DNA from: Flavobacteriales bacterium
GTDB taxonomy: Bacteria > Bacteroidota > Bacteroidia > Flavobacteriales_F > PHOS-HE28
Reading direction: 5' to 3'
DNA length: 64,000 nucleotides
Assembly (NCBI GenBank): GCA_016713865.1
Contig: JADJOG010000047.1
Location: 26,729 to 90,728, forward strand
Shown: positions 5,441-42,200 of the stretch, one piece after another
How positions within the stretch are numbered: the stretch's first letter is position 1
How the letters are laid out: each line of letters opens with the position of its first letter
Made by a program: the position numbers and the translations under genes
The notes under the pieces: model-generated
The model's database searches: none
Seen by the model: only the letters and a program-made list of their open reading frames with translations
Told to the model about the DNA's origin: nothing

Positions 5441-7171
5441 ATGGAGCGCTTCCTCTACATCGCCATCGCGGCGCTGGTATTCGCCTACGTGATGGTGCGC
5501 GCGATCTCGATCCCGCTCGTGCACGACGAGTCGGTCTCCTTCCTCAACTACGCGCAAACAGGCGATTTCCTGCCCTTCGCTTCCATTTGGGACGCGAACA
5601 ACCACTTCCTCAGCAGCCTCTGCGGCCACATCGGCTATCGGCTCTTCGGCTTCCACCTGCTCGCGCTACGGTGGGCGAGCGTGCTGGCTTTCCCTGTGTA
5701 CGCGTGGGCCGCGTGGCGCATGGGCCTGCTCTTGCAGCATCGGCAGGCACGCTGGCCGCTCTGGCTCGGCCTTCTCCTGTGCCCATTCCTGCTCGATTTC
5801 TTCTCGGTGTTCCGAGGCTACGGCCCGGCGCTGGCGTGCATGCTCTGGTCGCTCTATTTCGCGCAGCGCTTCCTGAAGGATGGCTCGCATGCGGCATTGT
5901 CGAAGTCGCTCGTCTTCATGGCCACGGCCAATGGATTCATGCTCGCGCTGGTGCCGCTCTGGGGCCTCACGCTCTTCGCGCTGCTGCTGCGCTGCCGGCA
6001 ACGCGGCGCGCTCATGCGCTGGGTGGTGCTTGGTCTGCTGCCACTCATCGGTGCTGCGGGCCTCAGCATGCTCATGTCGCGTTTCGGGTTGTTGTACCAT
6101 GGCACCCTCGACGGTTTCCTGCACGTCACGGTGGGCTCGTTGGCTTGGCGTGTGTTCGGCATGGATACGGGGCTCATCCGTGCCGCGATGCTCTTCGCCA
6201 CGATAGCCGGCATGCTGATCCTTGCAATCACGGGCTCGCGACGCAACGCGCTCGCTGACCATGGCCTCTTCTTCGCCGCGCTGCTCCTGGCCGAATCGTT
6301 CGGACGTGTGTTCTTGGCGCACATCGTCGGTGTCAATTACGCGGAAGACCGGGCTGCTTTGCACGCGCTGGTGCTGGCGATCCTGGTTGTTGGTTTCGCG
6401 GCGGATCGGCTCGCCGGGATGATTCGTTTCGGCTGGGCTTTTGGTGTGCTGCTTCTGGCTCTTCCCATCCGAACGCTGCTGCACGCCAACCTGGACCGAA
6501 CGGTGCTGTGGCCTGAGCAATCGATACCGGATAGCTTCATCGTGAAGGTGATGGAAGCGGAGAAGCAATTGGGCCGGCCCCTGCTCATGGGCGTGCATCG
6601 CCACGCGGGATTGCCATACGCCTTGCAGTTGAGGCGACTTGGCGGCGATGGCGATGCCACGGCGGTCCAATGGCCGAATTCACCTACCGATGCGCGCCTC
6701 GAACTGCGTGGCCTTACCTACTTCCACGATCCGCATTTCGCGCTGGTCGATAGTGCTGCCAGTGGGCTGCTGCTTTACATGCGCAAGGAGCCATGGCGCG
6801 GACGCGAGTTCATGGATACCGCGTTCCACGTGCAGTCGGTCGGGCTGGAACGGTCGCAGGGTATTCTGATTACGGCGGATAGGGTGCGGGCTGGCAAAGT
6901 GGTCCTTGTGGCGAATGGCACCTTGAGCGGTCCGGGTCCGCTGGATCTGCGCGTGTCCATTGGCGTGTTCGATTCCACCGGTCAGGCGCTGCATGGCGAT
7001 CACACCGTGCTGGCCACGCGTCGGGCTATATGGAATGGCGAATCGTGGCGCTCGGCATTGATCATTCCGCGATTCCCGGATGCGGCGCGTGTGGAGTTCT
7101 TCCTTTGGGAGCCCCGGCGCCAGACATTCACTGTGGAGCATGCGCGACTTCGCGCCCTAGCGATGGATTGA
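5441..7171 (+). CDS. polytopic membrane protein, ArnT/PMT_2 (GT39)-like glycosyltransferase family, with a C-terminal soluble domain
   Basis: About 350 aa of hydrophobic helices followed by a soluble domain. Start MERFLYIAIAALVFAYV chosen. Confidence 0.4.
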   Translation: MERFLYIAIAALVFAYVMVRAISIPLVHDESVSFLNYAQTGDFLPFASIWDANNHFLSSLCGHIGYRLFGFHLLALRWASVLAFPVYAWAAWRMGLLLQHRQARWPLWLGLLLCPFLLDFFSVFRGYGPALACMLWSLYFAQRFLKDGSHAALSKSLVFMATANGFMLALVPLWGLTLFALLLRCRQRGALMRWVVLGLLPLIGAAGLSMLMSRFGLLYHGTLDGFLHVTVGSLAWRVFGMDTGLIRAAMLFATIAGMLILAITGSRRNALADHGLFFAALLLAESFGRVFLAHIVGVNYAEDRAALHALVLAILVVGFAADRLAGMIRFGWAFGVLLLALPIRTLLHANLDRTVLWPEQSIPDSFIVKVMEAEKQLGRPLLMGVHRHAGLPYALQLRRLGGDGDATAVQWPNSPTDARLELRGLTYFHDPHFALVDSAASGLLLYMRKEPWRGREFMDTAFHVQSVGLERSQGILITADRVRAGKVVLVANGTLSGPGPLDLRVSIGVFDSTGQALHGDHTVLATRRAIWNGESWRSALIIPRFPDAARVEFFLWEPRRQTFTVEHARLRALAMD

Positions 7172-7291
7172 CGCACGCCTGCCGGCGCGGCGATTCCCCC
7201 TTACTTGCTTCGCCTGTGATCGCAAGCGGGCCTGCGGTTCCAAGGCCGCCCTACTTTCGCGCGGCCGCGTAAGAAATGGACGCGGTTCAGC

Positions 7292-8776
7292 ATGACCGCG
7301 CTCGCCAAAGGACCGCTCTTCATCACCAACACACTCACGCGTCGCAAGGAGGAATTCAAACCGCTGCGCCCGCCGCATGTAGGCCTGTATGTGTGCGGCC
7401 CTACCGTTTACAGCGACGTGCATCTGGGCAACGTGCGCAGCTTCCTCACCTTCGATGTGCTCTACCGTTGGCTGCGGCAACTCGGCTATACCGTGCGTTA
7501 CGTGCGCAACATCACCGATGTGGGCCACTTGGTGGACGACATTGACGAGGGTGAGGACAAGATCGCGAAGCGCGCCCGGCTGGAGCAGCTGGAGCCCATG
7601 GAGATCGTGCAGAAGTACACCAATGGCTTCCATGATGTCATGCGGTTGTTCAACATCCTGCCGCCGAGCATCGAGCCCACGGCGACGGGCCACCTGATCG
7701 AGCAGATCGAGATGGTGAAGCGGATCATCGGCAGCGGCTACGGCTACGAGGCGAATGGCAGCGTTTATTTCGATGTGCCACGCTTCGCGGAGAAGCATGC
7801 CTACGGCGAGTTGAGCGGACGCAAGATCGACGAACTGCTGGCCAACACCCGCGACACCGAAGGCATGGACGAGAAGCGCAGTCCGCTCGATTTCGCGATC
7901 TGGAAGAAGGCCGAGCCGCAGCACCTGATGAAGTGGCCCAGCCCTTGGGGCGAAGGCTTCCCCGGCTGGCACCTGGAGTGCAGCGCCATGAGCACCAAGT
8001 ACCTGGGCCAGACCTTCGACATACACGGCGGCGGCATGGACCTGAAGTTCCCGCATCACGAGTGCGAGATCGCGCAGAGCGTGGCCGCCGATGGCCATGC
8101 GCCCGTGCGCTACTGGATGCACGGCAACATGCTCACCGTGAATGGCCGGAAGATGGCCAAGAGCGAGGGCAACGGATTCACGCCGGAAGAGCTGCTCACC
8201 GGCAACCACAAGTTGCTGGAGAAAGGCTACAGCGCCATGACGGTGCGCTTCTTCATGCTGCAATGCCATTACGCCAGCACGCTCGATTTCAGCAATGCGG
8301 CCATGCAAGCCTCGGAGAAAGGTCTGGAGCGCTTGATGAAAGCGATGGCGCTATTGCCGAAGCTGAAGCCTGCTGACGCCGATGAAGCTGACATCTCCGC
8401 CTTGGAGCAGCGCTGCCACGCCGCGATGAACGACGACCTGAACACGCCGGTGATGATCGCCGAGCTGTTCGAGGCCGTGCGCATCATCAACAGCGCCAAC
8501 GATGGCAAACTGAAGCTCACCGCGGCATCCATTGAGTTGCTGCAATCGCTCATGCACAGCATGGTGCGCGATGTGCTCGGCATCCGTGACGAGGCCGATG
8601 CTTCACAAGGCAACGACAACGCGCTCGATGCGCTCGTGGGCGAGTTCATCCGCTTGCGCGCTGAGGCCAAGGGCCGCAAGGACTTCGCCACCAGTGATGC
8701 GATACGCGATCGGTTAGCAGCCATCGGCATCGTACTGAAGGACACGAAAGAGGGAACCACATGGGAACGCGCGTGA
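7292..8776 (+). CDS. cysS: cysteine--tRNA ligase
   Basis: [13 protein letters not shown] (HIGH region), KMAKSEGN (KMSKS), C-terminal anticodon-binding domain. Length 494 aa. Confidence 0.9.
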
Positions 8777-9723
8777 TTGCAATTGACTGTCGGCCGTGGG
8801 CGGCAAGCAGTTGGCTGGCTGTCGCGAAGTCGTGCCTACTGCCAACTGCTTACTGCCTACTGCTCCTGCTCTCCGGCTGCAACACTGATGGCCCCGACGA
8901 ATCCTCATCGGCCAACACTCAGCATACCGCCTGCGCCGATTGGATGGTAGCCAAGCTGAAAAGCTACGGGGCCGATGTGATCGAGCAGCGCAGCACCGTG
9001 AAAGCATACAACGGCAAGGAGCTGCCATTGCGCAACATCATCGCATCCTTCAATCCCATGGCGAAGGCCCGCATCCTTCTGCTCGCGCATTATGACACGC
9101 GCCCCATGGCCGATAAGGATTCAGATCGCCCCCACGAGCCCATCCTTGGCGCCAACGATGGCGGCAGCGGCGTGGGCATCCTGCTCGAGTTGGCGCGGCA
9201 CCTCGGCGGCAAGCAGCACGGCCCCGGCGTTGACCTGCTCTTCACCGATGTGGAGGATTACGGCCAGCCCAGCGGCGCCATGACGGTGGATGAGAAGAGC
9301 ATCGACACATGGGCGTTGGGCTCGCAATACTTCGCCAAGAACCCGCATGTGCCGGGCTACACTGCGCGCTTCGGCATCCTGCTCGACATGTGCGGCGCCA
9401 AGGATGCGCGCTTCTACCGCGAAGCCATCAGCATGCAGTTCGCAGCGGGCATCGTCACCAAGGTGTGGCGCACCGCGGAATCGCTCGGCTATGGCGATCG
9501 CTTCGTGCAGGAGACCAAATACTTCGTGGGAACGGATGACCACCTGCCCATCAACCGAGCAGCTCCGGATCCCCACCATCGACATCATCGAGTTCAACGC
9601 GGGCACCAACGCCTTCCACCCGAGCTGGCACACCCACGGCGACGACATGAGACGTGATCGATGCCGCAACGCTTAACGCTGGTTGGCCGCACCGTGCTCG
9701 AGGTGATGTGGAAAGAACGTTGA
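8761..9723 (+). pseudogene. M28-family zinc peptidase (glutaminyl-cyclase-like) lipoprotein, with at least two frameshifts in the C-terminal region
   Basis: LLLLSGC lipobox, HYDTRP and GANDGGSGVGILLE M28 motifs. The C-terminus ...IPTIDIIEFNAGTNAFHPSWHTHGDDM lies in a second frame (ORF 9290..9676) and a further shift occurs near 9660. Confidence 0.55.
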
Positions 9724-9799
9724 AGCGAGCGCGACGATGACGCAAACGGAAGAGGCCCGAGCATCGCTCGGGCCGCTTCCGTACTGGATGACCTTTTGT

Positions 9800-11803
9800 T
9801 CAGAGCTTCGTGAAGGGCTGCTTCCAGACGCCGTTCTCGCCGGTGAGTTGCAGCACGTAAGCGCCTTGGGGCAAGGTGCTCACATTGATGCGACCATCGG
9901 AGATGGCCTCGCGCTTCACCATGCGGCCAGCACCATCGAGCACCACAGCGGTGAGGCGCTCGCCTTGGCCAGCACCGGTGATGGTGATCTGATCCGCAGC
10001 CGGGTTGGGGCTGATGGTGAATGCGTCGGCGGGCAAGGTGACCACGCTGGTGGGCAAGCTCTCGGTGATTTCGAGGAACTGATTGACCGCAACGCCCTTC
10101 ACGACATCCACCACGCCGCTGGGCCAGTAGACCGTGACCTCTTCCACCTGCTCATCCTGGGAGCCCGAAATGCGCGCCAAAGAAGCTCATGTACCGGAAG
10201 CCGTCGCCGCTCTTCACATCGCGGATCTGGTGCCAATGGGGCTGGTCACCTCCACGCGAGCGCCGATGCCATTCTTGTTGCTCAAGGTGCCATGCAGGTT
10301 CACCTGTAGGCAATTGATGTTGTTGCCGTTGTTCATGCGGATGGTGCCGCCATTGAGGACGTCTAAGAAGCCATCGTGGTTGAGGTCGGCCACGGCGCCA
10401 GTGCTCGCTCACCACGGTGGGCGTGAAGGTCCTGTCGCCGTTGTTGAAGTGGATGGTGTTGCTGGCGCCCAGCACATCCACCCAGCCATCGTTGTTGAAG
10501 TCGTGCGCAACCCATTCGATGCTCGTGCCCGGGAACACATCGAAGCCCGAGCCCTCAGTGACATTGGTGAACGTATTTCCGTCGTTGCGCATGAGCTTGT
10601 GGCCGCCCTGCGCGAAGGAGCTGGCGCCGATGAGGATGTCCATATCGCCATCCATGTCGTAATCGGCCCACGCGCTGCTCCAGGTCTGCTGGTAGTCGGA
10701 CAGGCCCATTTCAACGGTCACTTCGGTGAAAGTGCCATCGCCGTTGTTGCGGTGCAGCTGATCCACCGAGGCAGGCACCTGCTGCCCGCCTCGGCACTTG
10801 GCGATGAAGAGGTCGATCAGATGGTCGTTGTTGTAATCGATCCAGATGCTGCCGTAGTTGCCGCCATTCGGCGTATCGCCCAAGCCGCCTTGGTTGTAGG
10901 AGAGTGCGCCGTGCCGTCGTTCAGGTAATACACGTTGGGCTGCACATCGTGGCACACGAAGGCATCGAGGTGGCCATCGTTGTTGATGTCAACGAAGTTG
11001 CTGCGCTGCGAGAACACGTATTGCGGGCCACTGATCTCGGTGAAGCCCGTGCCGTCTTCGGTGGCCATCATGAAGGTGACGCCGCTGCCGCCGCCATAGA
11101 GCAAGTCGAGGTAGCCGTTGGCATCAATATCGCCAGCAGCCATGCTCCAGCTCGGTGTGTAGTCTGCGCTGGTGGTAGGGAAGTCGATGGTGTTGAAGGT
11201 GCCATCGGGCTGCTGGTAGCTGATGCGGACATTGGTGGCCGTGACGGTGACCACATCGTCGTAGCCATCGTTGTTCATGTCCACTGCCGCTTGGCCGCAA
11301 CCAGAGCAGCTGCTGGTCGAAACGGTCTGGTTTGTGAAGCTGATGTAGGTGGGGTTCCAGGGCTGCGTGGTCACCGTGAAGTCGAAGCCCAGGCTCGAAT
11401 AGCGGTTGTCCCAGCCGATGAGGTAGGTAACGCCGGGGTAAGCGTTGAAGACCGCTAGGGTGAGCAGTCCGGCGCCACTGTCGTCATCGCCACCAGCGCA
11501 GGTCAGATTGCCGCACTCGCCGGTATAAATCTGCACGCGCGTGTCAGTGTTGCCGTTCTGCGTGAGGTCGCTGCTCACGAATACGGTTTGGTAGCTGGAA
11601 GGGGTGTACTGGTACCACATGCCAGCGTTAGCGCCGGTGCCGCCGGAACTGCACACGGGCAGCGGAACATCGGTTCCATCCACGGTATCAACCGTGTAAA
11701 CCACACCCGGCGTGATGGTCAGCGCCGTTGCGCAGGAGCTTTGCGCCTGCAGGCGCGCGAATGGGGCCAAGGCCATTAAGGCCAGTGCGTAGGATTGCTT
11801 CAT
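9800..11803 (-). pseudogene. FG-GAP/integrin-alpha-like repeat protein with T9SS C-terminal sorting domain. Split into three ORFs by two frameshifts.
   Basis: Signal peptide MKQSYALALMALAPFARLQAQ. Repeated NNDG(H/Y/W)xD and DMDGDMD FG-GAP motifs. C-terminal ...VLQLTGENGVWKQPFTKL matches the T9SS CTD. Fragments are 10817..11860, 10152..10955 and 9800..10180. Confidence 0.65.
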
Positions 11804-19945: not shown

Positions 19946-22024
19946 TCACTCAAGCATCAGGCGCGCTGTCGTACTCGATGCATTGTGGTGGAAACGAACC
20001 AGGTACGCGCCGCGCTCCAAGTGGTTCAATGCAATCGGCAGCAGCACGTCACCCGCTGGCAAGGTGCCCAAGTCGCGGTTCATCACGATGCGGCCGGTGG
20101 CATCAAGCAAATCGATGCGGGCATTGCCGGGAGCGCTCAAGAAAGCCACGATGCGGGTTTCACTCTGGGCGGGGTTCGGCAATAAGCGCAGCCCGCTCAC
20201 CGCTGTGGCTTCGTTCTCGCCAACGCTAACCGGCATGGAGCTGATGTTGATGTCGTCGAGATAAAGGTTGTTGCCGCCATTGCTCTCGAACACGAACTTG
20301 AAGCGGAAGTTGCTGATGTGACTGGTCGCGCTGATGTTGCTGACTTCCGTGTAGCCCCATTGCGATGCATCGCCCGGGACGAAAGAGCCAGTGGTTAGCG
20401 GCCCTGTAGGAAGGGTGGTTGTGCCGCGCATGATCTTGCGCAGGCTCCAGTTGGTGCCGCAATCGTTGCTGATGTATAGGCTCAGCACATCGTCGCTGGA
20501 GGCCGTGCGTCGTGCATAAGCCCAACGGAAGGAGATGGTGATGTCGTCGGCAGCGGTCATGTCGTAGGTGCTCGAGAGTAGCTCGACGCTGATTCCATTC
20601 ATCGCAGTGGAGTTGAGCACGCGTGCGCTCCGGCTGCCGCTGAAGGCCGCTGTGCTCGCGATGCTGAATCCATTCGCTCCCGCTGGCGTGGTGGTGTACC
20701 ATTCAGGGCCGTTCAGCGCCGCAACGGTCTCGAAGCCCTCGACCACAGGAGGTAGTGTTCCCGGGTCGGCCATCACGGTGATCAGCGCGTTCTGTGTGGT
20801 ACTGAGCGTGCTAGCGCCATCGCTCACGGTAAGGCTGGCGCTGTAGATGCCAGGCTGGCTGTAGGTGATCAATGGATTCTCCTCGGTGCTGGTATCGGGC
20901 GTGCCGCCGGGGAAGCTCCAGGTGCGCGATGTCACGCTGTGGAAGCTCAAGTCCGTGAAGGAGATGGGCGACCCCGCGCACACGAGCTTCTTATCTACTG
21001 CGAATTGCGCTTGGCAGAGCGTGGGTTGCTCATTTGCCCCAGTGGCCGTGAGGTTGGCCGGGGTCCACAATTGATTGCGCTGTGATGTGGAGCTGTTCAG
21101 CGCGGCGATCATCCGTGTCTTCTGCCCCTCGGTGAACATCTTGCTGCAGTAGGAGTACTCCATGTAATTCTCCACGTTGTCCAGCGATCCGCAGCTTGTT
21201 CCAGCCAAGGTGCATACGCGCCAGCCTACCGTGTTGGGCGTGTCGCTCACGCTATCGTCGCCATTGCAATTCTCCGGAAGCTCCGGTTCGTTGCTATTGC
21301 CCCATGTGTGCGCCAGGTTGATCCAGTGCCCGACCTCGTGCGTGAGCGTGCGAGAGCGAGAGGGAGACGAAGTGCCGATTGCACCCGTGTAGGTGTGCAG
21401 CACGACGATGCCATCCCATGTTGGCTGGTTGTTCACCGAGCTAGGGCGGTAGGTGTAGCCGGCAGCACCATCGGCACTGGCGGCCACCCACACATTGAGG
21501 TATTTGTTGCGTGGCCACTGGATCAGGTTCTTCATGGTCTGCGTGCCGTCGTTCGTGAGCGTGCTCACCGTACGCGTGATGCCGTTGGTGCAGTTGCCCT
21601 GCGGGTCGCGTTGGGCCAGTTTGAATTCAATGCCCACATCGGCTACCAATGGCAGGAACTCGGATGGCACATTCGGCCAGTCGATATTCAGCTTATTGAA
21701 ATCGTTGTTGAGCACGCGTACCGCATCCTCGACCTGCGCGTTGCTGATGTTCTCCGGTCCATTGTTATGGATGATGTGGAAGACGACAGGGATGGTGTAC
21801 ACCACGCGCTCGGCTCCGGAGTTGTCCATTGCCCATTGGGCAGTGAAGGCCTCCAAGCGCGCGTCCTCCTCCATCACGGCTTGCAGGTAGGCTTCGGGTT
21901 CGCCGCTGAGCTGGGCGGCTTTCGCCAAGTCGTTCGCACCGCATGGATGCACATCGCTTTGGGCGATGAGCGTGAGAGGGAGGAGTGCACCAAGAAAGAG
22001 CGCGGAAAGGACGAGGAATCGCAT
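19946..22024 (-). CDS. M43 zinc metallopeptidase with T9SS C-terminal sorting domain, paralog 2
   Basis: HEVGHWINLAHTWGN. Signal peptide MRFLVLSALFLGALLPLTLIAQ. C-terminal ...YLVRFHHNASSTTARLMLE. High identity to paralog 1 (MEYSYCSKMFTxGQKTRMIAAL). Confidence 0.8.
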   Translation of the reverse strand: MRFLVLSALFLGALLPLTLIAQSDVHPCGANDLAKAAQLSGEPEAYLQAVMEEDARLEAFTAQWAMDNSGAERVVYTIPVVFHIIHNNGPENISNAQVEDAVRVLNNDFNKLNIDWPNVPSEFLPLVADVGIEFKLAQRDPQGNCTNGITRTVSTLTNDGTQTMKNLIQWPRNKYLNVWVAASADGAAGYTYRPSSVNNQPTWDGIVVLHTYTGAIGTSSPSRSRTLTHEVGHWINLAHTWGNSNEPELPENCNGDDSVSDTPNTVGWRVCTLAGTSCGSLDNVENYMEYSYCSKMFTEGQKTRMIAALNSSTSQRNQLWTPANLTATGANEQPTLCQAQFAVDKKLVCAGSPISFTDLSFHSVTSRTWSFPGGTPDTSTEENPLITYSQPGIYSASLTVSDGASTLSTTQNALITVMADPGTLPPVVEGFETVAALNGPEWYTTTPAGANGFSIASTAAFSGSRSARVLNSTAMNGISVELLSSTYDMTAADDITISFRWAYARRTASSDDVLSLYISNDCGTNWSLRKIMRGTTTLPTGPLTTGSFVPGDASQWGYTEVSNISATSHISNFRFKFVFESNGGNNLYLDDINISSMPVSVGENEATAVSGLRLLPNPAQSETRIVAFLSAPGNARIDLLDATGRIVMNRDLGTLPAGDVLLPIALNHLERGAYLVRFHHNASSTTARLMLE

Positions 22025-22209
22025 GGTGTGCTGAGGGGCTGGTTCAGCGCCAAAACTATTCGACTGCCCGAAAGACACGGGTCATGCTCAGGTAACAAGC
22101 CACGCAGGTCTTTGGCTCCTACGTGCGCTGGGAGAAGGAGTGGCACAAGCCCCCCGCCGACAAGCTGTTCACATGGCCCGATGGAGCATGGCTCGGCCCC
22201 GATGAGCGC

Positions 22210-31017: not shown

Positions 31018-32781
31018 ATGCCCGCCCACCTCGCCAAGCGCTGGCGCCTGAAGCCCGCACCGGAACCCGACGCCGTGGCCGAACTCACCTACGAGCGCTG
31101 CCCGGAATCTGCGGCCACCATCCTGGCCCAACGCGGAATCCGCGACAAGCGCATGGCCGCGCACTTCTTCCGCCCGGCGCTCGACGACCTGCACGACCCT
31201 TTCCTGATGGCCGGCATGCAAGAGGCGGTTGAACGCATCGAGCGCGCCTTGGGCGACAACGAGCGCATGATGGTGTATGGCGACTACGACGTGGATGGCA
31301 CCACCGCCGTATCGCTCGTGTATGGTTCCCTCGCGCGCTTCACCGGCAACCTGCTGTTCTACATCCCGGATCGATATGCCGAAGGCTACGGCATCTCGTT
31401 CCAAGGCATCGATAAGGCCAAGGAAGAAGGCATCACGCTCATCATCGCGCTGGATTGCGGCATCAAGTCCATCGACAAGGTGGCCTATGCCAAGGAGCGC
31501 GGCATCGACTTCATCATTTGCGACCACCACTTGCCGGGCGAGCAACTGCCCGATGCCGTGGCCGTGCTCGACCCCAAGCGCCCCGATTGCCCCTATCCGT
31601 TCAAGGAGCTCAGTGGCTGCGGCATCGGCTTCAAGCTGATGCAAGGCTTCGCGCAGCGCAACAACATCGCCTTCGATGATCTGCTATCGTCGCTGGATCT
31701 GGTGGCCATCAGCACGGCATGCGACATCGTGCCGGTGACCGGTGAGAACCGCATCCTCAGCCATTTCGGCTTGAAGGAGCTGAACGATACCCCACGGCCA
31801 GGTGTGCGCGCCATCCTCGGCATGGCCAACGTGAAGAAGCGCCTCGGCGTGGGCGACCTCGTGTTCAGCATCGGTCCGCGCATCAATGCCGCCGGGCGCA
31901 TCGAGCATGGGCGCAAAGCGGTGGAACTGCTGCTGGCGCACGAGGATCAGCAAGCAGCAGCGGTAGCCACCTTGATCGACGGCAACAACAGCCATCGGCA
32001 GGAGCTCGACCGCAACATGACGGAGGAAGCACTCGCGCACATCGCCGATGATGCTTGGCAGCAAGGCTCTTGGAGCACGGTGGTGTTCAAGCCCGAATGG
32101 CACAAGGGCGTGGTGGGCATCGTGGCCTCGCGCCTGGTAGAGCGGCATTACAAGCCCACCGTGGTGCTCACCGCCAGCAATGGCAAGGCCGTGGGCAGCG
32201 CGCGCAGCGTGAAGGGCTTCGATGTGCATGAGGCCATCAGCGCGTGCAGCGATCTGCTGGATCAGTACGGCGGCCACATGTATGCGGCGGGGCTCACCAT
32301 GCCAGTGGAGAATGTGGAAGCCTTCCGCCAGCGATTCGATGAAGCTGTTCGCGCCACCATCACCGCTGAGCAGCGCGTGCCGGAGGAAGAGGTGGACATC
32401 GAGCTCCGCCTTGATCGGATCGACGAGGGCCTGTTGCGCGTGATCAAGCACATGGCGCCGTATGGTCCAGGAAACATGAGGCCCGTCTTCCTCGCACGCG
32501 GTGTTGTTGATACGGGCAGCGCGCGCCTCGTGGGCGAGCACCATCTGAAGATGCGGCTCGCTCACCCCGACGACCTGCGCCGATCCTTCGATGCCATTGC
32601 CTTTAAGCAAGCCGCTTGGCTCGATCGCGTGAAGAGCGGCCAGCCCTTCAGCGTGCTTTACGCGATCGAAGAGCATGAATGGCAGGGCCGCGTGAGCACG
32701 CAGCTCAATATCAAGGACATCAAATCGGAAGTGGATGGCGTGCTCTTCGGGGAAGAACGCATGGCCGCTGTGAACCAATGA
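31018..32781 (+). CDS. recJ: single-stranded-DNA-specific exonuclease RecJ
   Basis: DHH motifs (VYGDYDVDGTTA, IICDHH) and a DHHA1 domain. Length 587 aa. Confidence 0.9.
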   Translation: MPAHLAKRWRLKPAPEPDAVAELTYERCPESAATILAQRGIRDKRMAAHFFRPALDDLHDPFLMAGMQEAVERIERALGDNERMMVYGDYDVDGTTAVSLVYGSLARFTGNLLFYIPDRYAEGYGISFQGIDKAKEEGITLIIALDCGIKSIDKVAYAKERGIDFIICDHHLPGEQLPDAVAVLDPKRPDCPYPFKELSGCGIGFKLMQGFAQRNNIAFDDLLSSLDLVAISTACDIVPVTGENRILSHFGLKELNDTPRPGVRAILGMANVKKRLGVGDLVFSIGPRINAAGRIEHGRKAVELLLAHEDQQAAAVATLIDGNNSHRQELDRNMTEEALAHIADDAWQQGSWSTVVFKPEWHKGVVGIVASRLVERHYKPTVVLTASNGKAVGSARSVKGFDVHEAISACSDLLDQYGGHMYAAGLTMPVENVEAFRQRFDEAVRATITAEQRVPEEEVDIELRLDRIDEGLLRVIKHMAPYGPGNMRPVFLARGVVDTGSARLVGEHHLKMRLAHPDDLRRSFDAIAFKQAAWLDRVKSGQPFSVLYAIEEHEWQGRVSTQLNIKDIKSEVDGVLFGEERMAAVNQ

Positions 32782-34349
32782 AACCTGATCGCATGAAGAA
32801 GCATCTCATCGCTTTTGCGGCTTTGCTGCCCTTTGCCGCCTCAGCCCAGTCGCCAACTTGGAGCGACGATGTGGCGTGCATCGTGTACTCGCACTGCACC
32901 GCATGCCACCACGATGGAGGTCCTGCGCACTTCAGCCTGACCACGTATGTGGATGCCTATTGGTGGCGCAATGAGATGCGTGCCGCGACGCAGGCCAAGC
33001 TGATGCCACCCTGGCCAGCAGATGAAGCCTATCGCCCGCTGGCGCACGAGCGGCTCCTTTCGCAGGATGAGATCGACATCATTGCCGCATGGGTGGACGG
33101 TGGCGCCCCCGAGGGCAATGCGCAGAATGCCCCAGCGGCACCGGAGTACTCGAGCGAGGCCGTGATCACGAATCCCGATATCACCGCCATCATGGATGAT
33201 TACGTCATCCCTTCTTCAACCTCCGACAACTACCGGTGCTTCGTGCTGCCCATCAACAACCCCGCGAACTCCTGGATCACGGGCCTTGAAGTGGTGCCCG
33301 GCAACCGCGAGATGGTGCATCACGTGCTCGTGTTCCAGGACGCCACCGGACAGGCGCAGCAATTGGATGCGCAGGATCCGGCGCCCGGCTATTCCGGTTT
33401 CGGTGGCATCGGCGTACCCAGCGCCAAGCTGATTGGGATGTGGGTGCCGGGGTCGGAGCCGTACTTCACCCCGCAAGGAATGGGAATCAAGTTGCTCGCG
33501 AACGCGGACATCGTGATTCAGGTGCATTACCCGGCCACGAGTTCGGTGCAACTCGATAGCACTCGGGTGAACATCCGTTTGGGCACAGCGCCCTTCATGC
33601 GCGAGTTGGCCATCGATGCCATCCTTCAGCATAGCAATATGACCAACGGCCCGCTCGTGATCCCGGCCAATCAGGTGCGCACCTTCAATCAGCAGTACAC
33701 AGTTCCGATCAATGCCACCATCACCGCCATCGGCCCGCATGGCCATCTGATCTGCCGAAGCTTGAAGAGCTGGGCGGTGAAGCCCAGCGGCGAAGTGGTC
33801 CCGTTGATCGACATCCCGCAATGGGATTTCCGTTGGCAGGACCTGTACTCCTTCCGCAATCCCATCTTCTTGCCCAGCGGAACCGTGATCCACAGCGAAG
33901 GCGTTTACGACAATACCAGCGCGAACCCCAACAACCCGAGCAGTCCGCCGCAGCTGGTCACTGCCGGCGAGGCCACCACCGATGAGATGTTCCTCTTCTT
34001 CTTCGCATGGACGCCCGGCCTCGCCAGCGATGAAGCGATCGTGATCGATGACGGTGCGCACCCTGAGCATCACCTCGGCTGCGAGACCAGCTTCTCGGTC
34101 GGAGTGATTGATGTGGTCGCAGCGCCGTTGCGGATCGTACCGAATCCGGCTGCTGAGCGCATCACCATTTCCGGCGCGACTGGATCGATTATCCGCATGC
34201 TCGACGCAACAGGTCGCGTGGTGCACACGGCATCACTCACGATGCAAGAAGAGGTCATCGATGTGGCCGCATTGCGACGCGGGCCCTACATCGTGGAGCT
34301 GCTGCATCGCGATGGAACGAATCAGCGCGCCACTGTGGTGCTTGAATGA
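32778..34349 (+). CDS. secreted cytochrome c domain fused to a copper type II monooxygenase-like (PHM/DBH fold) domain, with T9SS C-terminal sorting domain
   Basis: Signal peptide (MKPDRMKKHLIAFAALLPFAASAQ; alternative start 32793). CTACH heme motif plus MPPWPAD. PHM-like ligand pattern: HHVLVF, QVHYP, PHGHLI, DEMFLFF. C-terminal ...GPYIVELLHRDGTNQRATVVLE. Confidence 0.55.
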   Translation: MKPDRMKKHLIAFAALLPFAASAQSPTWSDDVACIVYSHCTACHHDGGPAHFSLTTYVDAYWWRNEMRAATQAKLMPPWPADEAYRPLAHERLLSQDEIDIIAAWVDGGAPEGNAQNAPAAPEYSSEAVITNPDITAIMDDYVIPSSTSDNYRCFVLPINNPANSWITGLEVVPGNREMVHHVLVFQDATGQAQQLDAQDPAPGYSGFGGIGVPSAKLIGMWVPGSEPYFTPQGMGIKLLANADIVIQVHYPATSSVQLDSTRVNIRLGTAPFMRELAIDAILQHSNMTNGPLVIPANQVRTFNQQYTVPINATITAIGPHGHLICRSLKSWAVKPSGEVVPLIDIPQWDFRWQDLYSFRNPIFLPSGTVIHSEGVYDNTSANPNNPSSPPQLVTAGEATTDEMFLFFFAWTPGLASDEAIVIDDGAHPEHHLGCETSFSVGVIDVVAAPLRIVPNPAAERITISGATGSIIRMLDATGRVVHTASLTMQEEVIDVAALRRGPYIVELLHRDGTNQRATVVLE

Positions 34350-34795
34350 TGCTCGACCTCGGCGATGAGCATTTCATGCGGCAGGCCCTGAAGGAGGCTG
34401 AGCAGGCCTTCAAGCAGGACGAGGTGCCCATCGGTGCGGTAGTGGTAGGCGGCGGACGCATCATCGCTCGCGCGCACAACCTCACCGAGAAGCTGAACGA
34501 TGTCACGGCGCATGCCGAGATGCAGGCGATTACCGCTGCTGCAGAGGCCATTGGTGGAAAGTACTTGAGGGAATGCACGCTGTATGTGACCGTGGAGCCT
34601 TGCCCCATGTGCGCCGGTGCGCTGCATTGGGCGCAAGTGGGGCGCATCGTGTTCGGCGCCTTCGACGAGAAGAGCGGCTACCGGCGCATCGGCGGCGTGC
34701 TGCTGCACCCCAAGACCCAGGGGACCGGCGGAGTGCTGGAGCCGGAGTGCGCTGATCTGATGAAGGCCTTCTTCAAGCGGAAGCGCGCGTTGTAA
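34346..34795 (+). CDS. tadA: tRNA adenosine(34) deaminase
   Basis: HAEMQAI...TLYVTVEPCPMCAGAL zinc-binding motifs. Length 149 aa. Confidence 0.85.
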   Translation: MMLDLGDEHFMRQALKEAEQAFKQDEVPIGAVVVGGGRIIARAHNLTEKLNDVTAHAEMQAITAAAEAIGGKYLRECTLYVTVEPCPMCAGALHWAQVGRIVFGAFDEKSGYRRIGGVLLHPKTQGTGGVLEPECADLMKAFFKRKRAL

Positions 34796-34842: not shown

Positions 34843-35733
34843 ATGAAACGAATCGCGACACTTCCGCTCATGTGTGCATTGATTCATCCGGGTTCGGCGC
34901 AAGTGGTGGGTGAGTTCCTCGAGATGAATTTCGAGTCGGGCGCCACCCTGGTCCTGGACAGTGTTTATCCAGCAGGTTGCTGGCAAGTGGGGAGACCTGC
35001 GAAAACTCTGTTCACCACCGCGCTCAGCCTTCCAAACGCGCTTGTCACGGACACACTGCTTCCTTATCCGTCTTTCACCACGTGCTATGCTGAGTTCACA
35101 CTCTTAGCTGATGAGTCCTCAAATGATTATGGTCGCTGGTTCGAGTTCGATCATTGGTTGGACCTCGCTCCGGGCAGTAGGGCCTACATAGAGGCCCGCG
35201 ACACCTGGTCTTCCGATTGGTCAAGGTTGAACGACGGCTGGTATGCGGAGGGAAGCGTGATCAATGGACCCCAGGGTTATGAATTCGCGGGCAGCACAGG
35301 CGCATGGGAGCATGTAGCCTTCGACTCGCCTTGCGGCGGTGTGATGCAAGCGACAGCCGATCGATGGTATGACCCGTTGATGCGGCTTAGGTTCGTGCTT
35401 GAAGCAGGCGATAACGGTAGCGGCCGCGATGGCTGGATGATCGATGACTTTCGTGCCACGGCTACCATTTGCGCGGGCGGCCTTACGGAACACAGGGTCA
35501 GCGGCTTGAAGATCTACCCGAACCCAGCGAATGACAGGGTGCTCATTCAGTTTCATGGCAATCCCGGTCCGTCGACAGTGCAAGTGATCCGTAGCGATGG
35601 CGCTATAGTCGCGGTGACTACCGTGCAAGGCGATCGAATCGGCTTGAGCGTTGATGAATTGCCATCAGGGCCCTATCTGATACGTTCCATCGGTAGCATG
35701 CCAAAGCAGGCCATGCTCCTCATTCAGCGTTGA
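34843..35733 (+). CDS. hypothetical secreted protein with T9SS C-terminal sorting domain
   Basis: Signal peptide MKRIATLPLMCALIHPGSAQ. C-terminal KIYPNPANDRVLIQF...GPYLIRSIGSMPKQAMLLIQR. Confidence 0.6.
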   Translation: MKRIATLPLMCALIHPGSAQVVGEFLEMNFESGATLVLDSVYPAGCWQVGRPAKTLFTTALSLPNALVTDTLLPYPSFTTCYAEFTLLADESSNDYGRWFEFDHWLDLAPGSRAYIEARDTWSSDWSRLNDGWYAEGSVINGPQGYEFAGSTGAWEHVAFDSPCGGVMQATADRWYDPLMRLRFVLEAGDNGSGRDGWMIDDFRATATICAGGLTEHRVSGLKIYPNPANDRVLIQFHGNPGPSTVQVIRSDGAIVAVTTVQGDRIGLSVDELPSGPYLIRSIGSMPKQAMLLIQR

Positions 35734-35746
35734 GGCCAAAGCCGCT

Positions 35747-38700
35747 TCACGGCAATTGCTGCGTCCTTGTATTCGTCGGAACGCTTCCGCCAACATTCAC
35801 GAGAATTGGATCGCGGTCGTTGTTCTCCCCGGTGTAGCGGAAGATGCCATCCATGTTCACGTCGGCTTGGTGATAGCCCGGCGCGCTCAAAGCCGTTGGC
35901 ACGTTGCCGCCAATGCTCAACAGGATGGGATCGCGGTCATTGTCCTCACCGGTGTAGCGCAGGATGCCATCGCGAGAAACATCACCGCTCCAGAGCAGCG
36001 CCTTGCCATCGCGCAGCCGACGGGCATCGGTCCCGTGCATGCTGAGCGCAGGGTTCGAGAAGTCGATGCTCGCTGGGGTCGTGCTCAATGCTTGCGGGGC
36101 CGCAGTCATTGCTCCCAGATGATTCCGGTGCTTCACGGCGATTCGGTAATTACCATTTCCGGCGCGGAAGCTTACAGGCGAATCTCCGTCGATGTCAACC
36201 ACATCGCCATCGCGCTGCAGCAGTGCTGAGCGAGTGGCAAGCACGGTTGACGGCGAGGTGGCATCGCGCAATTCGAGCATCACCCAATCGACAATGGCAT
36301 TATTGCCCGATTGGACGAGCACGGCAGGCGCCACGGTCTCGCCGCCGCCGAAGTACTGCTGGAAGCCAAGTCCGGTGTAGGGCTCGGTCGAAGGGATGTG
36401 GGAGCCGCTGCGCAAGGCATCGCTCATGATGTCCGTGACCTCATCATAAGGACCATCGAGCAAGAGCTTCAGGGCCACGCGCACGCCATTGCGCTCGATC
36501 ACCACATCGTCGAGGTGCAGCCAGTTGCCATAGCCATTGATATTCACGAAGCGCACGATCACTTGCTGGCCGTCGAAAGCGCTTAGGTCATCATCGTGCT
36601 GCTGCCATTGACTGCAGGCGGTTGGTGTCCAGGCTGAGGTGACATATCCTGTGGTTTGCAGGGCCGCACCCGTGGCCTGGAATGTGGTGGTCCAAGTGAG
36701 CCCGCAATCGCCGCTGACCTCCACGCGCATGCCATCGGGGTAAGCAGAGCTATAGCCGCTGTAGGCGTGCTTGTATTTGAGGCGCGTGCCAGCCGATCCA
36801 CTCAGGTCTATTCGCGGGGTAACCAAGCGATCTTCTTGGCCCGGGGCGCTTACGGAGTAGTTATCGATGCCCCAGACGCGCGCGCCTACGCAAGACTCTT
36901 GGGCGGAAACAGCACGGGTCACCCATGTGGTGCCGTTGTCGGGATTCTCGAGTAACCAGCCCGCAGGGATCGGCGGGGTGCTTTCAACATTCGTGGTATA
37001 GGTCGATGCAGCACTGGATGGAGTAGTGAGGGTGATGCTCGATGCAGCTGCGTCATTCGGGACGTACTGATCCCCCGCAAGATTCGTCCGTGCCGTCACG
37101 GTATGTGGCCCATCGCCTGTGATGGTGAGTGTTTGCGCGAAGGTGTAATCGGCAGAGGCGCCTGCAGCGAGTGTCCCGGCGTAGGCGGCCAGCACCTCGG
37201 AGCCTCCATCGAGCTGATAACGCAGCTCGAAATTCGATTGTGGCTGCTGACCGAAGTTTCCGCACGCGAACAACGACTGGGAGATTGCTTGCCGCGCAGT
37301 TGAAGAGGTTTCCGCTGGGCGATAGCACTTGAGCGATGCCCACGTTGTTGGCCACGGGCATGTCGAAGGCCTCGCTCTGATCCGAGCGGCTGGTGGAGAG
37401 CCCTTGACTGGCGCTTGCTCCCAAGCCGCGGCGCGCGAAGGCTGCCCAGATCGCGGTCTGGTTAGCACCGCCGTAAAGTGCTTGATCGGCGGCGAGTATC
37501 GCGTCACGACCATCAACGAATCCTGGATTGCAGGGTGTGAGCTTCAGGCCTTCAATCACCAGTCGCATGGCGATGTTGTTGCCGCCGGTGCCATTGTAAA
37601 TGTCCGGGTCCCAGCCGTAGATGCCGATCAGCTCCCAGGTCATCTCCCAGAGCATGGTACACCACACGAAACCGATGCCATGCGGCTGGCTCAATCCACT
37701 ATTGGTGCTTGCATAGGTGTAGTTGTTAACGCCGAAGCTGGTGCTGTAACGAGCCGGGCGGATGCCCGCACCCGTGGTAGGCTGGCCGAGCACATAGGTG
37801 CCTACGCCACGACCGGTTGAACCGGTATCACCTGCGCGTATCGTCATAACGATGCCGAAATAGTCGCTCCAGCCCTCACCCATTTGCTCAGCGTTGCCCA
37901 AGCAGCTCGTGTTCGCCGGACCGCCAACGAGGCGGTTGCTGATGCCGTGGCCGTACTCATGCGCGATGATCCCATTATCCAGGTCACTGTCGCGGTTGGG
38001 CGTGGTATAGGTCCACCGATACATCTGCATCCGTGGATTGCTGCCATCGGGTGGAGTGCCGAAATTGGCGTTGTTGGTGCCGCTGCCATCCTGCGCATCT
38101 GCATCAACGGGGTCGCTGCCGACGCCGCCGCGGCCGTAGTTGTTCTCTTGGAAGTTGCCGGCCGGGTCATTGAAGCCATACTGGTACCACACGTCGTGCA
38201 TCAAGTTGTTCCAGTAGAAGAGGTTGGTGGTGGCGGCGGGCAGGTAGGTCGAAGGCGCCTGTGCGAAATCAATCGGGAAGTCGAAGTCGAGCGTTGCGCC
38301 GCCATCTGGTCGCGTGCCACCGGTGTTGTTGGCATCGGCATCTTCTTGCGCGAAGCAGTTGTTGCCGCGCGTATCCGAGAACTCTGCACCTGCTACACCA
38401 TTGGTGTCGTGCCAGCCATAGGGCGAAGCGGTGCCGCCATCGAGCCAAGGGGCGTTGCTCAGTGTGCGCGGGCCGTGGCTCGGACTCTCCAAAGGCCAAT
38501 CGAACACGTTGTATTCGTTGGGTGCGGCGGGAGCAAGTTCCTCTTCAGGCGAATGATCGGTGCAGCCATGATGTGTGTGGTCATCCCAGTTGCATTGCGC
38601 TACCCAGTCGTTGCGGTCCAGCTCTTCACCGGTGATGGCATCGACGCGCACGTTCCACCAATGCGAGCCATCGGGCGTGTAATGGTTCACGTTCCAGGCC

Positions 38701-39212
38701 AAGCGCAAGGCATCGCCTTTGGGCTGGAACACGAGCTGGGCTATTATGGGCTCGTTTCCGAAAGCGCTGCCATCGAAGATCGCTTTGCGCCCTTCATCCT
38801 CTGCGCTCATCAGCTGCGGTGCGCTCTTATCGGGCAGGTTGCGTGCAATCACCAAGGCCACGGCGGCTTCGGCTGTAAGCACGGGTTCGGTAGCGTTCGC
38901 GCGTTTCCCGATGCCGGTGAAAGCGCCCACGTTCAACTTGAGCAATTCGCCATCTGGACGGAGATGCATAGCGATGTCGCCATTCCACACCTCGATGCCT
39001 TGCCAGCGCTGACGCAGGTACAAGTGACGGATCCCGCTTCCTTCCGAACGGTAATCGTCCTCGATCAGTAGATCCTTCAGGTCGCTTGCATGAAAGCCGT
39101 CAAGCAACAGAAGCTGCTCGGTTTTCGCTGGCAAGGGAGTTGAGCTCTGGGCAGAAACGCAGTTCGCTGAAAATACGAGGGCAATGAGGGCGAGGGTCGG
39201 CTTGTGTATCAT
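35747..39212 (-). pseudogene. M36 (fungalysin-like) zinc metalloprotease, copy 1: FTP propeptide, M36 catalytic domain, shared middle domain and a dockerin-like C-terminal module. One frameshift near 37300.
   Basis: Signal peptide MIHKPTLALIALVFSANCVSAQ. HEYGHGISNRL (HEXXH) in ORF 37053..39212. The continuation in ORF 35747..37516 includes D-x-N-x-D-G loops (DVNMDGIFRYTGENNDRDPIL). There is no classic T9SS CTD. Confidence 0.75.
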
Positions 39213-39282: not shown

Positions 39283-42200
39283 TCACTCGGAAACCACGAG
39301 GCGCTCCACGCCGAAGGCGCCATCGGGCCCAATGCGCAGGAAATACACGCCGGGTACTGGACGGCGCAGCGCGAGTCGCACAAGGCCCTCTGCCCCGGTA
39401 TCGACGCTCATCGGGACAATCTGCCCTAAGGCATCACGCAGTTCGATCGGCGTGCCGGGCTCCGGTAGCAGAAGTGTGAACTGGCCATTGCCCGGGTTCG
39501 GGAATGCCCGTTGGCCTTGATGGCCACGCTTCATGCTAACCATATCCGAGATCTCCTCGGATCCATCGATGTCGATCATGCGCAAGCGATAGAAGCTGGT
39601 GCCCGCTAGCGGCGCGGGATCGAGCAGTGCGTAATTCGAGAGCATCAGCGATTGGCCGCGCGCTTCCATGCGGCCAATGGCGGTCCAAGCGCTTGCATCA
39701 CGCGAGCGCTGCACCTCGAAATGGCTGCTGCCGCTCTCACTGGCCGTGCTCCATTCCAACAGCACGCCGTCAGCCACCTCGCGGCCTTTGAAAGAGAGCA
39801 GCTCCACTGGAAGTGAAGAGGATCCCGTGAACTGCACATTGTCTAGATACAAGGTGTTGCCGTAGCCATTGATGCCTACGAAGCGCACGAGCACGGTCTG
39901 CCCGTCATAGGCGCTGATGTCGAGATTGTTGGCCCTCCACTGCGCGCAAGCACCCGGGGTATACACTCCAGTGTTATCCGGTGCGGTGGCAAGCGCGGCT
40001 CCGCTCTGGTTCAGCAAGGTCACCCAGTTGCCGCCGCAGCTGCCGCTGATTTCAACGCGGAAACCATCGAAAAGCGAGGCATTGTACCTGGCATAGGCGT
40101 TGTCGAATCGGAGACGGGTGCTGCTGAGGCTCACGAGGTTCACGAGCGGTGTAATCAAGCGGTCTTCCTGTCCTATGCCGTTATAGTTGAAGTTGTCGAT
40201 GTACCAAGCGCGCGATGAGGTGCACGAAGGCCCGGGGCCGATTGCCGGAACGATTGTGCTCCAGGTGTAAGCATTGTCAGGGTTCTGAAGCGACCATCCG
40301 GCAGGCGTTGGCGAAGCGGCAGAAAGGCCCTCGCTGTATGGCGCCATCACGGTTGTGCCAGCCGTAACGGTGATTGATTGTGATTGGGCATTGTCCACGG
40401 CGTACATGTCGCCGGTGAGGTTGGTCTCCACCTCCAAAGTGTGCGTGCCCGCCGAAGGTGGAGTGAAGGGTGTGGCGAACGTGACGGTGACGGACGCACC
40501 AGAAGCCAGAGGGCCCGGTACATTCTGCGTTACCCATGCGCCGCCGTTCAAACGGTAACGAACCGGGAAATTGCTCTGTGAATTGGTTCCGAAGTTGCGC
40601 ACCACTGCACGCACGGTTACAGGAGAGGACGGGCAGAGGTAGAAGGCGGTTCCGGGCTCCGTGATGCTGGATACGCCAACATTGGTGGGTACTGGCGAGC
40701 TGTACGATTCCACCTGATCAGTACGGCTGCCCGCAGTGCCCTGGCTGGCACCGCTGCCCAAGCCGCGCCGGGCGAAAGCGGCCCAAAGCGCCGTGTTGTT
40801 GGCGCCGCCATACAGGTTCTGATCAGCGAGCAGGATGGCATCGCGGCCCTGCACGAAACCGGGATTGCATGGCGTGAGCTTCATGGCTTCAATCACTAAG
40901 CGCAATGCCCGATTGTTGCCGCCGTTGCCGTTGTAGATGTCGGGGTCGAAGCCGTGGATGCCAATCAGCTCCCAAGTCATTTCCCACAGGATGGTGCACC
41001 ACACGAAGCCCATTCCGTGCGGCACGGTGAGGGCTGTATTGTTCGTGCTTGCATAGGTGTAATTATTCACCCCGAAGTTGGTGCTGTATGGAGCGGGCCT
41101 GATGCCGCCGCCCGTTGCTGGCTGCCCCACCACGTAGGTGCCGATGCCGCGTGGCATAGGACCCGTATCACCGGTCTTCATCGTGAGCATGAGCGCTAAG
41201 TAGTCGCTCCAGCCTTCGCCCATCTGCTCAGCATTGGTCAGGCAGTTCACATTCGCTGGACCGCCTACGAGTCGATTGCTCACGCCATGACCATATTCAT
41301 GTGCGATCACGCCATTGTCCAGATCGCTCGTGCGATTGGGCGTGGTGTAGGTCCACACGTACATCTGCATGCGTGGACGTGTGCCTTCGGCGGGCGTGGC
41401 GAAGTTGGCGTTGTTGGTGCCGCTGCCATCGAGCGCATCGGCCAGCACATAATCGTTGCCGGTGCCGCCACGGCCGTAATTGTTCTGCTGGAAGTTGCCC
41501 GACGGATCATTGAATCCGTAGCCGTAGAGCACATCATGCACGGTGTTGTTCCAGTAGTAGAGATTGGTGATGAGGGCGCTTTGATAGGTGTTAGGCGCAT
41601 TGGCCAGATTGATCGGGAAGTCGAAGTCGAGCGTAGCGCCGCCATCGGGAGCGGCCGATCGTGGTCTCATTGTCGTTGGCGATATCCTCCTTCGCCCAAA
41701 CGTTGTTGCCTCGGGTTGTCGTGTACTCCGCGCCCGCAGCGCCATTCGTGTCCTGCCATCCGAAAGGCGATGCGATCCCGCCCAGAGTCCAAGGCGCATT
41801 GCGCAGGGAGCGCGCTCCGTGCGAAGGGCTCTCGACAGGCAAGCCGTACACATTGAAATCGTTCGGAGCCGCCGGCATCATCGATGCGTCCTCCGGGTGC
41901 GCGCAGTCGTGGTCGTTATGCGGGTGATCCCACGTGCAGGAACTCACCCAATCGTTGCGGTCGAGCTCCTCGCCGGTCATGGCGTCGATCCGTACGTTCC
42001 ACCAATGGCTGCCATCAGGCGTGTAATGGTTCACGTTCCAAGCAAGCCGCAAGCGGTCATCAACGGGTTGATAAACGAGCTGTGCGAAGGGCGATTCATC
42101 GCTGAAGCCTGTTGCATCGAAACGGATCAAACGCCCGCCATCCAATGATTCGATGATCGCAGGGGTCGCGACCCCTGGAAGATTCTCTGCAAGCACGCTG

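Follow-up and report, generated by a model that had tools for sequence, protein, structure and literature searches.

A single gene in a 64,000-nucleotide stretch of a Flavobacteriales bacterium genome (assembly GCA_016713865.1, contig JADJOG010000047.1, positions 26,729 to 90,728; hereafter, the window) encodes, in this order, a predicted c-type cytochrome domain, a copper core resembling that of peptidylglycine alpha-hydroxylating monooxygenase (PHM) and DBH, and a type IX secretion system (T9SS) C-terminal sorting domain (CTD). The fusion of the cytochrome to the PHM-like core is real and ancient: both modules lie in one chain in 147 out of 150 representatives (the 150 best, sharing <50% mutual identity), and the other three are N-terminally truncated fragments. 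The best explanation of the gene, which we regard as probable, is a three-module enzyme that would be exported by Sec, sorted by the T9SS, and would pass electrons from heme c to the CuH copper site and from there to the CuM site, for the O2-dependent hydroxylation of an extracellular substrate.

The open reading frame (ORF) occupies positions 32778-34349 of the + strand (ATG at 32778, TGA at 34347-34349) and comprises 523 codons plus the stop. The original prediction, which was made from the letters of the window, described a single ORF of about 520 amino acids (aa); it is indeed a single ORF, with a length of 523 rather than 520 aa. All of the motifs quoted there were recovered from the translation: CTACH (residues 40-44), MPPWPAD (76-82), HHVLVF (181-186), QVHYP (248-252), PHGHLI (320-325), and DEMFLFF (402-408).

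Copper core and cytochrome module

An AlphaFold2 (AF2) model of the target, built on 34 homologues (mean predicted local distance difference test score [pLDDT]: 81), contains two consecutive beta-sandwiches, and the top 31 hits in a Foldseek search of this model against the PDB were all PHM or DBH structures (E-values: 2e-12 to 1e-9). The Pfam models Cu2_monooxygen (residues 138-252; E 7.7e-7, 29.8 bits) and Cu2_monoox_C (residues 314-411; E 0.0038, 17.1 bits) both matched the target, and several relatives passed one or both of the Cu2 gathering thresholds. For a residue-level comparison, the rat PHM core sequence was checked and proved identical to PDB entry 4e4z_A (PAM numbering corresponds to the position in 4e4z_A + 44; the numbering was also checked against 5wm0). 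When the family profile was aligned to this sequence (hhalign: 93.8% probability, E 1.7e-7), H181, H182, and H250 of the target corresponded to the CuH ligands H107, H108, and H172 of PHM, and H321, H323, and M404 corresponded to the CuM ligands H242, H244, and M314. The CuH/CuM pattern that had originally been proposed from short motifs is therefore matched column for column, and the proposed PHM/DBH fold was recovered by the structural search. The link to PHM was obtained via hhalign and the fold search; in a PDB sequence search for PHM, the target sequence alone matched nothing and the full-length profile matched only T9SS CTDs. As judged from the ligand alignment and the modeled fold, this region is a bona fide PHM/DBH-fold catalytic core of the non-coupled binuclear copper type, with copper binding and hydroxylation as its predicted activities.

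The resemblance extends to the second coordination sphere, where the conserved residues Y152, Q248, and Q354 were aligned by hhalign with Y79, Q170, and Q272 of PHM. The substrate anchors of PHM have no such counterparts. R240, which forms a salt bridge to the peptide carboxylate, aligns with G319, a position that varies in the family (A/F/S/T), N316 aligns with L406 (L/I/V), and Y318 with F408 (Y/F). In place of the peptide anchors, the CuM domain carries the conserved aromatic motifs WDFxWQ and YDNT. Because equivalents of R240 and N316 are absent, the target belongs to the PHM/DBH superfamily, yet it is no PHM orthologue in terms of substrate, and its substrate is not a glycine-extended peptide bound in the manner of PHM. 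The Pfam scan of the target revealed no PAL domain and no DOMON domain; its N-terminal module is instead made of helices and bears a CxxCH motif.

In this N-terminal module, Cytochrome_CBB3 matched residues 36-81 of the target with an E-value of 0.62 (Pfam). The cytochrome domains of close relatives, searched alone, matched the same model in 20/20 cases at a permissive threshold (E<=10; best 4.9e-5), and 15 of these 20 also matched Cytochrom_C. Among distant relatives (34-52% identical), 16/27 matched Cytochrome_CBB3 at E<=1e-3 (best 3.1e-6) and 6/27 matched Haem_bd. Some relatives exceed the curated cytochrome c cut-off, and no family other than cytochromes was matched by the cytochrome-domain sequences of the 27 distant relatives or, likewise, of the close set. 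A profile of the distant set found 47 PDB sequences at E<=1, almost all of them c-type cytochromes (e.g., a c555 trimer at 6.5e-6, CcoP at 0.006, and many c6). The helix order in the AF2 models (N-terminal helix, CxxCH, C-terminal helix) fits that of cytochrome c. On the sequence evidence, we treat the N-terminal module as a putative monoheme class-I-type c cytochrome with presumed His/Met ligation, in agreement with the class-I assignment first made from CTACH and MPPWPAD, both of which are present and conserved.

The cytochrome-domain profile also matched residues 641-765 of 5c2v_A, the C-terminal heme c domain of the alpha subunit of anammox hydrazine synthase (E 2.3e-4). This match spans the helix-CxxCH start and the LTQDE...W(I/V)xxGA end of the domain, and points to a common cytochrome subfamily to which both heme domains may belong. 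A likeness of the MPP...SxDE...W pattern to Pseudomonas c551 was set aside as unconfirmed because hhalign of the profile against c551 aligned only the last helix, with 4.5% probability.

Conservation of the fusion and its export signals

Homologues of the gene are abundant. A word-indexed search returned >1,620 of them, nearly all of which are proteins of about 520 aa from metagenome-assembled genomes (MAGs) of Flavobacteriales, with the best being 97% identical, and an exhaustive profile search found 21,022 clusters (50% identity) at E<1e-3 and 3,634 at E<1e-30. In a close alignment of 34 homologues (54-82% identity), H39, C40, C43, H44, M76-P-P-W-P, H181, H182, H250, H321, H323, and M404 are invariant. 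Among the 150 representatives, CxxCH is present in 137-138 of the 138 non-gap rows and M76 in 147/147; the copper-site histidines are found in 146 (H181), 144 (H182), 143 (H250), 143 (H321), and 148 (H323) of the 150 sequences, and M404 in 135/141. Given that the heme and copper ligands are kept at about 95-100% across these divergent representatives, the fusion is not an assembly artefact. Nor is the cytochrome N-terminus encoded by a gene of its own, and the fusion first noticed in the window is conserved in its relatives. None of the refuting conditions set out in the original prediction was borne out. A rival in which the PHM-like region would be a PNGase F-related beta-sandwich that binds without catalyzing, or in which the fusion would be a product of assembly or annotation, is effectively refuted: strong purifying selection acts on the six copper ligands and the heme ligands across >100 divergent lineages, and the single-chain architecture occurs on hundreds of independent contigs and in complete genomes.

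The 150 representatives comprise 74 cytochrome-PHM-CTD, 65 cytochrome-PHM, and six redoxin-cytochrome-PHM proteins, two tandem duplications, and the three fragments; some of the 65 cytochrome-PHM forms have Ig or PKD repeats plus a CTD that was missed by the narrow hidden Markov model (HMM). A scan in which each GTDB species was represented by a single genome found carriers in at least 594 species, and the lineages among the matches listed include Flavobacteriales, Saprospiraceae, Chitinophagaceae, Hymenobacter, Fluviicola, Cytophagales, and Kapaibacterium. Examples of cultured carriers are Fluviicola chungangensis MAH-3, Flavilitoribacter nigricans DSM 23189, and Hymenobacter frigidus.

Several variations on the architecture were observed in the wider family. 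Locus L018 from one Flavobacteriales MAG has three cytochrome-PHM-like-CTD paralogues in tandem (positions 5001-9898), suggesting local diversification. Two proteins, P0130 (1064 aa) and P0214 (1251 aa), contain two complete cytochrome-PHM-like units per chain, with additional EF-hand motifs in P0130 and two redoxin domains in P0214. Close homologues also occur in bins labeled as Proteobacteria (L083 from a Luminiphilus MAG; L061, L069, and L073 from 'Hyphomicrobiales' MAGs), one of which has a T9SS-type CTD; these could be due to bin contamination, mislabelling, or lateral transfer.

The target carries signals for export at both ends. Residues 1-23 read as a Sec signal peptide, as originally claimed, with a basic n-region, a hydrophobic core, and A-S-A followed by Q. 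Signal peptidase I is predicted to cleave before Q24, which is nearly invariant at the +1 position in the alignment of homologues and consistent with the Q-rule of Bacteroidetes signal peptides (PMC5837995, PMC10653852).

At the C-terminus, Por_Secre_tail (PF18962) matched residues 454-516 with 30.1 bits, above its cut-off of 27, and the domain has a beta-sandwich fold with structural matches to solved T9SS CTDs, bearing out the canonical CTD of the original prediction. Thus, the domain content predicts a Sec-exported protein whose secretion would depend on the T9SS. Very unlikely, in our judgment, is a periplasmic enzyme whose C-terminal beta-sandwich does not function as a T9SS signal and whose heme draws its electrons from the cytochrome c pool of the periplasm, as the heme of relatives without the CTD must. 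In its favor, TIGR04183 scored below its cut-off (19.5 vs. 23 bits), no CTD was detected with the narrow HMM in 65/150 representatives and 25/81 GTDB orthologues, and periplasmic redoxin partners without a CTD adjoin some of the CTD-bearing orthologues.

Putative redoxin partners and proposed electron supply

Bacteroidota versions of the protein end in a T9SS CTD, and an N-terminal ResA/TlpA-like redoxin domain (e.g., the N-termini of P0249, P0260-P0262, P0265, and P0267) is present instead in forms from Armatimonadota (Chthonomonadaceae, Fimbriimonadaceae), Planctomycetota, and others. In nine of the 83 loci compared (L054, L059, L064, L066, L073, L077, L080, L081, and L083), a small thioredoxin-fold gene immediately adjoins the cytochrome-PHM gene. 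The adjacent redoxin is homologous to the fused domain, sharing the motifs FLxxxCP(I/M)(S/C), TPE, and a C-terminal GC, and it has no CTD even beside a CTD-bearing enzyme. The nearest NCBIfam models are ResA, StoA, DsbE, and MauD, suggesting that the redoxin may serve a periplasmic maturation role (apocytochrome reduction or metal insertion) and not catalysis. The fused and adjacent forms together suggest a Rosetta-stone-type link to what may be a dedicated maturation or redox partner. For the target itself, tblastn found no redoxin, either fused or in the window.

The same redoxin association could instead point to peroxide/thiol chemistry, since the core is fused to an AhpC/TSA-Redoxin domain in other phyla and such a gene is adjacent in the nine loci. 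The enzyme would then be an H2O2-driven copper peroxygenase, as proposed for lytic polysaccharide monooxygenases (LPMOs), in which the heme occasionally primes Cu(II) to Cu(I) or handles peroxide, without supplying two electrons per turnover; it would also avoid a steady extracellular electron supply, which is hard to picture. We consider this unlikely. The core has PHM-type His3 and His2Met ligands with a conserved PHM second sphere and no LPMO histidine brace, the redoxin is closer to the maturation factors than to peroxiredoxins, and the target has no fused or neighboring redoxin.

The ascorbate-fed CuH site of PHM, and that of DBH, for which a DOMON domain has been proposed as reductant, provide the frame for the monooxygenase that we favor. 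Module order, ligand sets, and conservation are read directly from the sequences, and the mechanism built on them would proceed as follows. Heme would be attached to C40/C43 in the periplasm, with H44 and presumably M76 as axial ligands, and the T9SS CTD would direct the protein, already folded and loaded with its cofactors, through the outer membrane, either to the cell surface or into the medium. There, the heme would accept single electrons from an outside reductant and pass them to CuH, which would reduce CuM; CuM would bind O2 and hydroxylate a C-H bond of the extracellular substrate. The heme is a likely electron donor to CuH. The term "self-sufficient" used in the original prediction is an overstatement, because the heme still needs a reductant from outside.

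Electrons could also run in the opposite direction, with the copper core acting as an oxidase or dehydrogenase that passes electrons through the heme to an external acceptor, or with the protein acting as an extracellular metal reductase. Cell-surface cytochromes are more commonly an exit than an entry for electrons, and no donor was identifiable in the gene neighborhoods. Nevertheless, this reverse flow is quite improbable: the characterized enzymes with this fold and ligand set (PHM, DBH, and TBM) are all O2-activating monooxygenases, and the CuM methionine and the equivalents of Q170 and Q272, which are tied to O2 chemistry, are conserved.

Several results weigh against the cytochrome-fed monooxygenase. 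The cytochrome domain of the target scored 10.9-15.1 bits (the upper value for the domain alone) against a Pfam cut-off of 27, its isolated AF2 model is poor (pLDDT 62), and Foldseek with the isolated domain found nothing significant (best match: cytochrome c554, E 2.7). The Cu2 domains also fall below their curated cut-offs (29.8 vs. 30 and 17.1 vs. 23 bits). In the profile searches that the original prediction had recommended, relatives match the cytochrome families and both Cu2 models match the target, but the target itself stays under the curated cut-off in each case. Furthermore, a physiological reductant for the heme outside the outer membrane is not evident, and the gene context (recJ and tadA, see below) is uninformative about any pathway. 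We are evenly divided on the broader proposition that the target belongs to a very large branch of PHM/DBH enzymes in prokaryotes that would be independent of ascorbate through a tethered cytochrome c feeding CuH and that, in aerobic Bacteroidota, would be surfaced by the T9SS and oxidize an extracellular polymer, peptide, or small molecule.

Genomic setting and known systems

The features of the target and its two flanking genes are listed in Table 1.

Table 1 Features of the target gene and its flanking genes (window positions; residue numbers refer to the target protein).
Feature	Position	Strand	Basis
Whole ORF (523 aa + stop)	32778..34349	+	Sequence; full-length homologues
Sec signal peptide, residues 1-23, MKPDRMKKHLIAFAALLPFAASA	32778..32846	+	Read from sequence; AF2 helix 8-22
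Monoheme c-type cytochrome domain (predicted), residues 24-115	32847..33122	+	Cytochrome_CBB3 matches in relatives; PDB profile matches
Heme attachment motif C40-T-A-C43-H44	32895..32909	+	Invariant in close homologues; 137-138/138 non-gap representatives
M76-P-P-W-P, presumed distal Met ligand (axial role inferred)	33003..33017	+	M76 in 147/147 representatives
Pro/Ala-rich linker, residues 116-134	33123..33179	+	AF2 model: no regular secondary structure
PHM-like N-terminal beta-sandwich (CuH domain), residues 135-270	33180..33587	+	
H181-H182, equivalent to PHM H107/H108 (CuH)	33318..33323	+	hhalign, numbering check, conservation
H250 in IQVHY, equivalent to PHM H172 (CuH)	33525..33527	+	hhalign, numbering check, conservation
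PHM-like C-terminal beta-sandwich (CuM domain), residues 275-415	33600..34022	+	
H321-G-H323, equivalent to PHM H242/H244 (CuM)	33738..33746	+	hhalign, numbering check, conservation
M404 in TDEM, equivalent to PHM M314 (CuM)	33987..33989	+	hhalign, numbering check, conservation
Spacer, residues 416-450, HxxHH motif and C435; low-confidence linker at 441-446	34023..34127	+	Alignment, AF2 model
T9SS type A C-terminal sorting domain, residues 451-523	34128..34346	+	Pfam; structural matches
recJ, upstream; context, no functional partner	31018..32781	+	Pfam DHH/DHHA1/RecJ_OB; synteny in L001, L003
tadA-like deaminase, downstream; context only	34346..34795	+	Pfam; synteny in L001, L003

The start codon of the target overlaps the stop codon of recJ (caATGAaa, 32778-32781), and its stop codon overlaps the start codon of tadA (gaATGAtg, 34346-34349). 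Two related genomes (L001 and L003) show the same recJ-X-tadA order, again with stop and start codons that overlap. These overlaps at both ends, together with the repeated gene order, imply that the target is co-transcribed with housekeeping genes instead of belonging to a catabolic locus. A scan for sigma-70 sites and terminators found none between recJ, the target, and tadA, a result that is uninformative because the scan lacks Bacteroidota promoters. Across the family, recJ and tadA are neighbors in only 7-9 of the 83 loci, all in the close Flavobacteriales clade, and no family-wide conserved neighbor was found among the 83. A LytS/LytTR pair lies beside the gene in 5-6 Saprospiraceae loci. 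A polysaccharide-utilization context was considered and dropped, as no polysaccharide utilization locus or SusC/D pattern was present in the 83 loci.

No paralogue of the target was found in the window, and its similarity to other cargo genes there is confined to the CTD. CTD-like C-termini occur on further ORFs at 34843-35733 (+), 19946-22078 (-), and about 9830-10081 (-); one of them matched Por_Secre_tail (28.6 bits, Pfam) and two matched the CTD of the target in tblastn (E 2e-4 and 2.5e-6), indicating a source organism that is rich in T9SS cargo and supporting the predicted export of the target. A gene for an M36 fungalysin-type metalloprotease at 35747-39212 (-) is apparently split into two overlapping ORFs, one at 37053-39212 (719 aa; FTP and Peptidase_M36) and one at 35747-37516 (589 aa; no Pfam match). 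The syntenic M36 orthologue in L003 is a single ORF of 1159 aa, and the split suggests a frameshift between about 37053 and 37516, through either pseudogene formation or a sequencing or assembly error. A second M36 fungalysin paralogue, which has a CARDB domain, adjoins the first (39283-41853, -).

Annotation pipelines already recognize the separate domains. Among the JGI names is 'Copper type II ascorbate-dependent monooxygenase, N-terminal domain/Secretion system C-terminal sorting domain', and the redoxin-fused forms bear only generic database names, either 'redoxin domain-containing protein' or the name 'peroxiredoxin/mono/diheme cytochrome c family protein', which is also used by JGI. In full-text searches, which did not extend to subscription journals, we came across no account of either a bacterial cytochrome c-PHM-like enzyme or a c-type cytochrome that is T9SS cargo. 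The original remark that this architecture was not recognized as described for T9SS cargo agrees with these searches, but the core is peculiar neither to the T9SS nor to this genome. In the window, a catalytic core of known type occurs in a format that is new, conserved, and prokaryotic, and that is predicted to be heme-tethered and secreted. The cytochrome-PHM-like core forms a very large family, with other accessory domains in other phyla, and its value lies in the family and not in the window.

PHM and DBH are textbook animal enzymes (of amidated hormones and noradrenaline) that are hard to produce, and their long-range electron transfer from CuH to CuM and their reductant supply are still debated. 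A bacterial family that combines these copper sites with a built-in heme as reporter and donor would offer a tractable system in which intramolecular electron transfer could be followed optically. If the cytochrome-fed, surface-exposed branch exists as proposed, it would give bacteria a new class of oxidative enzymes that are secreted. The PHM/DBH class would extend to prokaryotes at scale (>21,000 sequence clusters), and a copper monooxygenase and a c-type cytochrome would join the known T9SS cargo repertoire. If the substrate is an extracellular polymer or peptide, the family would be relevant to carbon turnover by aerobic Bacteroidota.

Compared to the PHM catalytic core of PAM (EC 1.14.17.3; 1PHM, 1SDW), the target has the same ligands, the local motifs VHH, QVHY, HxH, and DEM, and conserved equivalents of Y79, Q170, and Q272, whereas overall identity is only about 15-17% and R240/N316 are replaced by G319/L406. 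Unlike PHM, the target is bacterial, lacks PAL, and would be exported by the T9SS, with the heme c domain as the likely donor instead of free ascorbate. In DBH, tyramine beta-hydroxylase, and MOXD1 (4ZEL), the N-terminal module is a DOMON beta-sandwich, in contrast to the predicted covalent-heme cytochrome of the target, which also lacks the dimerization domain of this group; the placement is nevertheless comparable, because the cytochrome directly precedes the CuH domain as DOMON does in DBH. The redoxin-cytochrome c-PHM-like proteins share a homologous core and the same heme and copper ligands with the target, but have an N-terminal thioredoxin-fold domain and no CTD, the reverse of the target. 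Copper enzymes with a tethered cytochrome c include the NirK of Ralstonia pickettii, NosZ with a C-terminal cytochrome c domain, and subunit II of caa3 oxidases. In these, as is proposed here, a fused monoheme class I cytochrome c is a built-in entry for single electrons; however, their copper folds (cupredoxin, CuA, CuZ) are unrelated to that of the target, and they are periplasmic or membrane reductases or oxidases, neither monooxygenases nor T9SS cargo.

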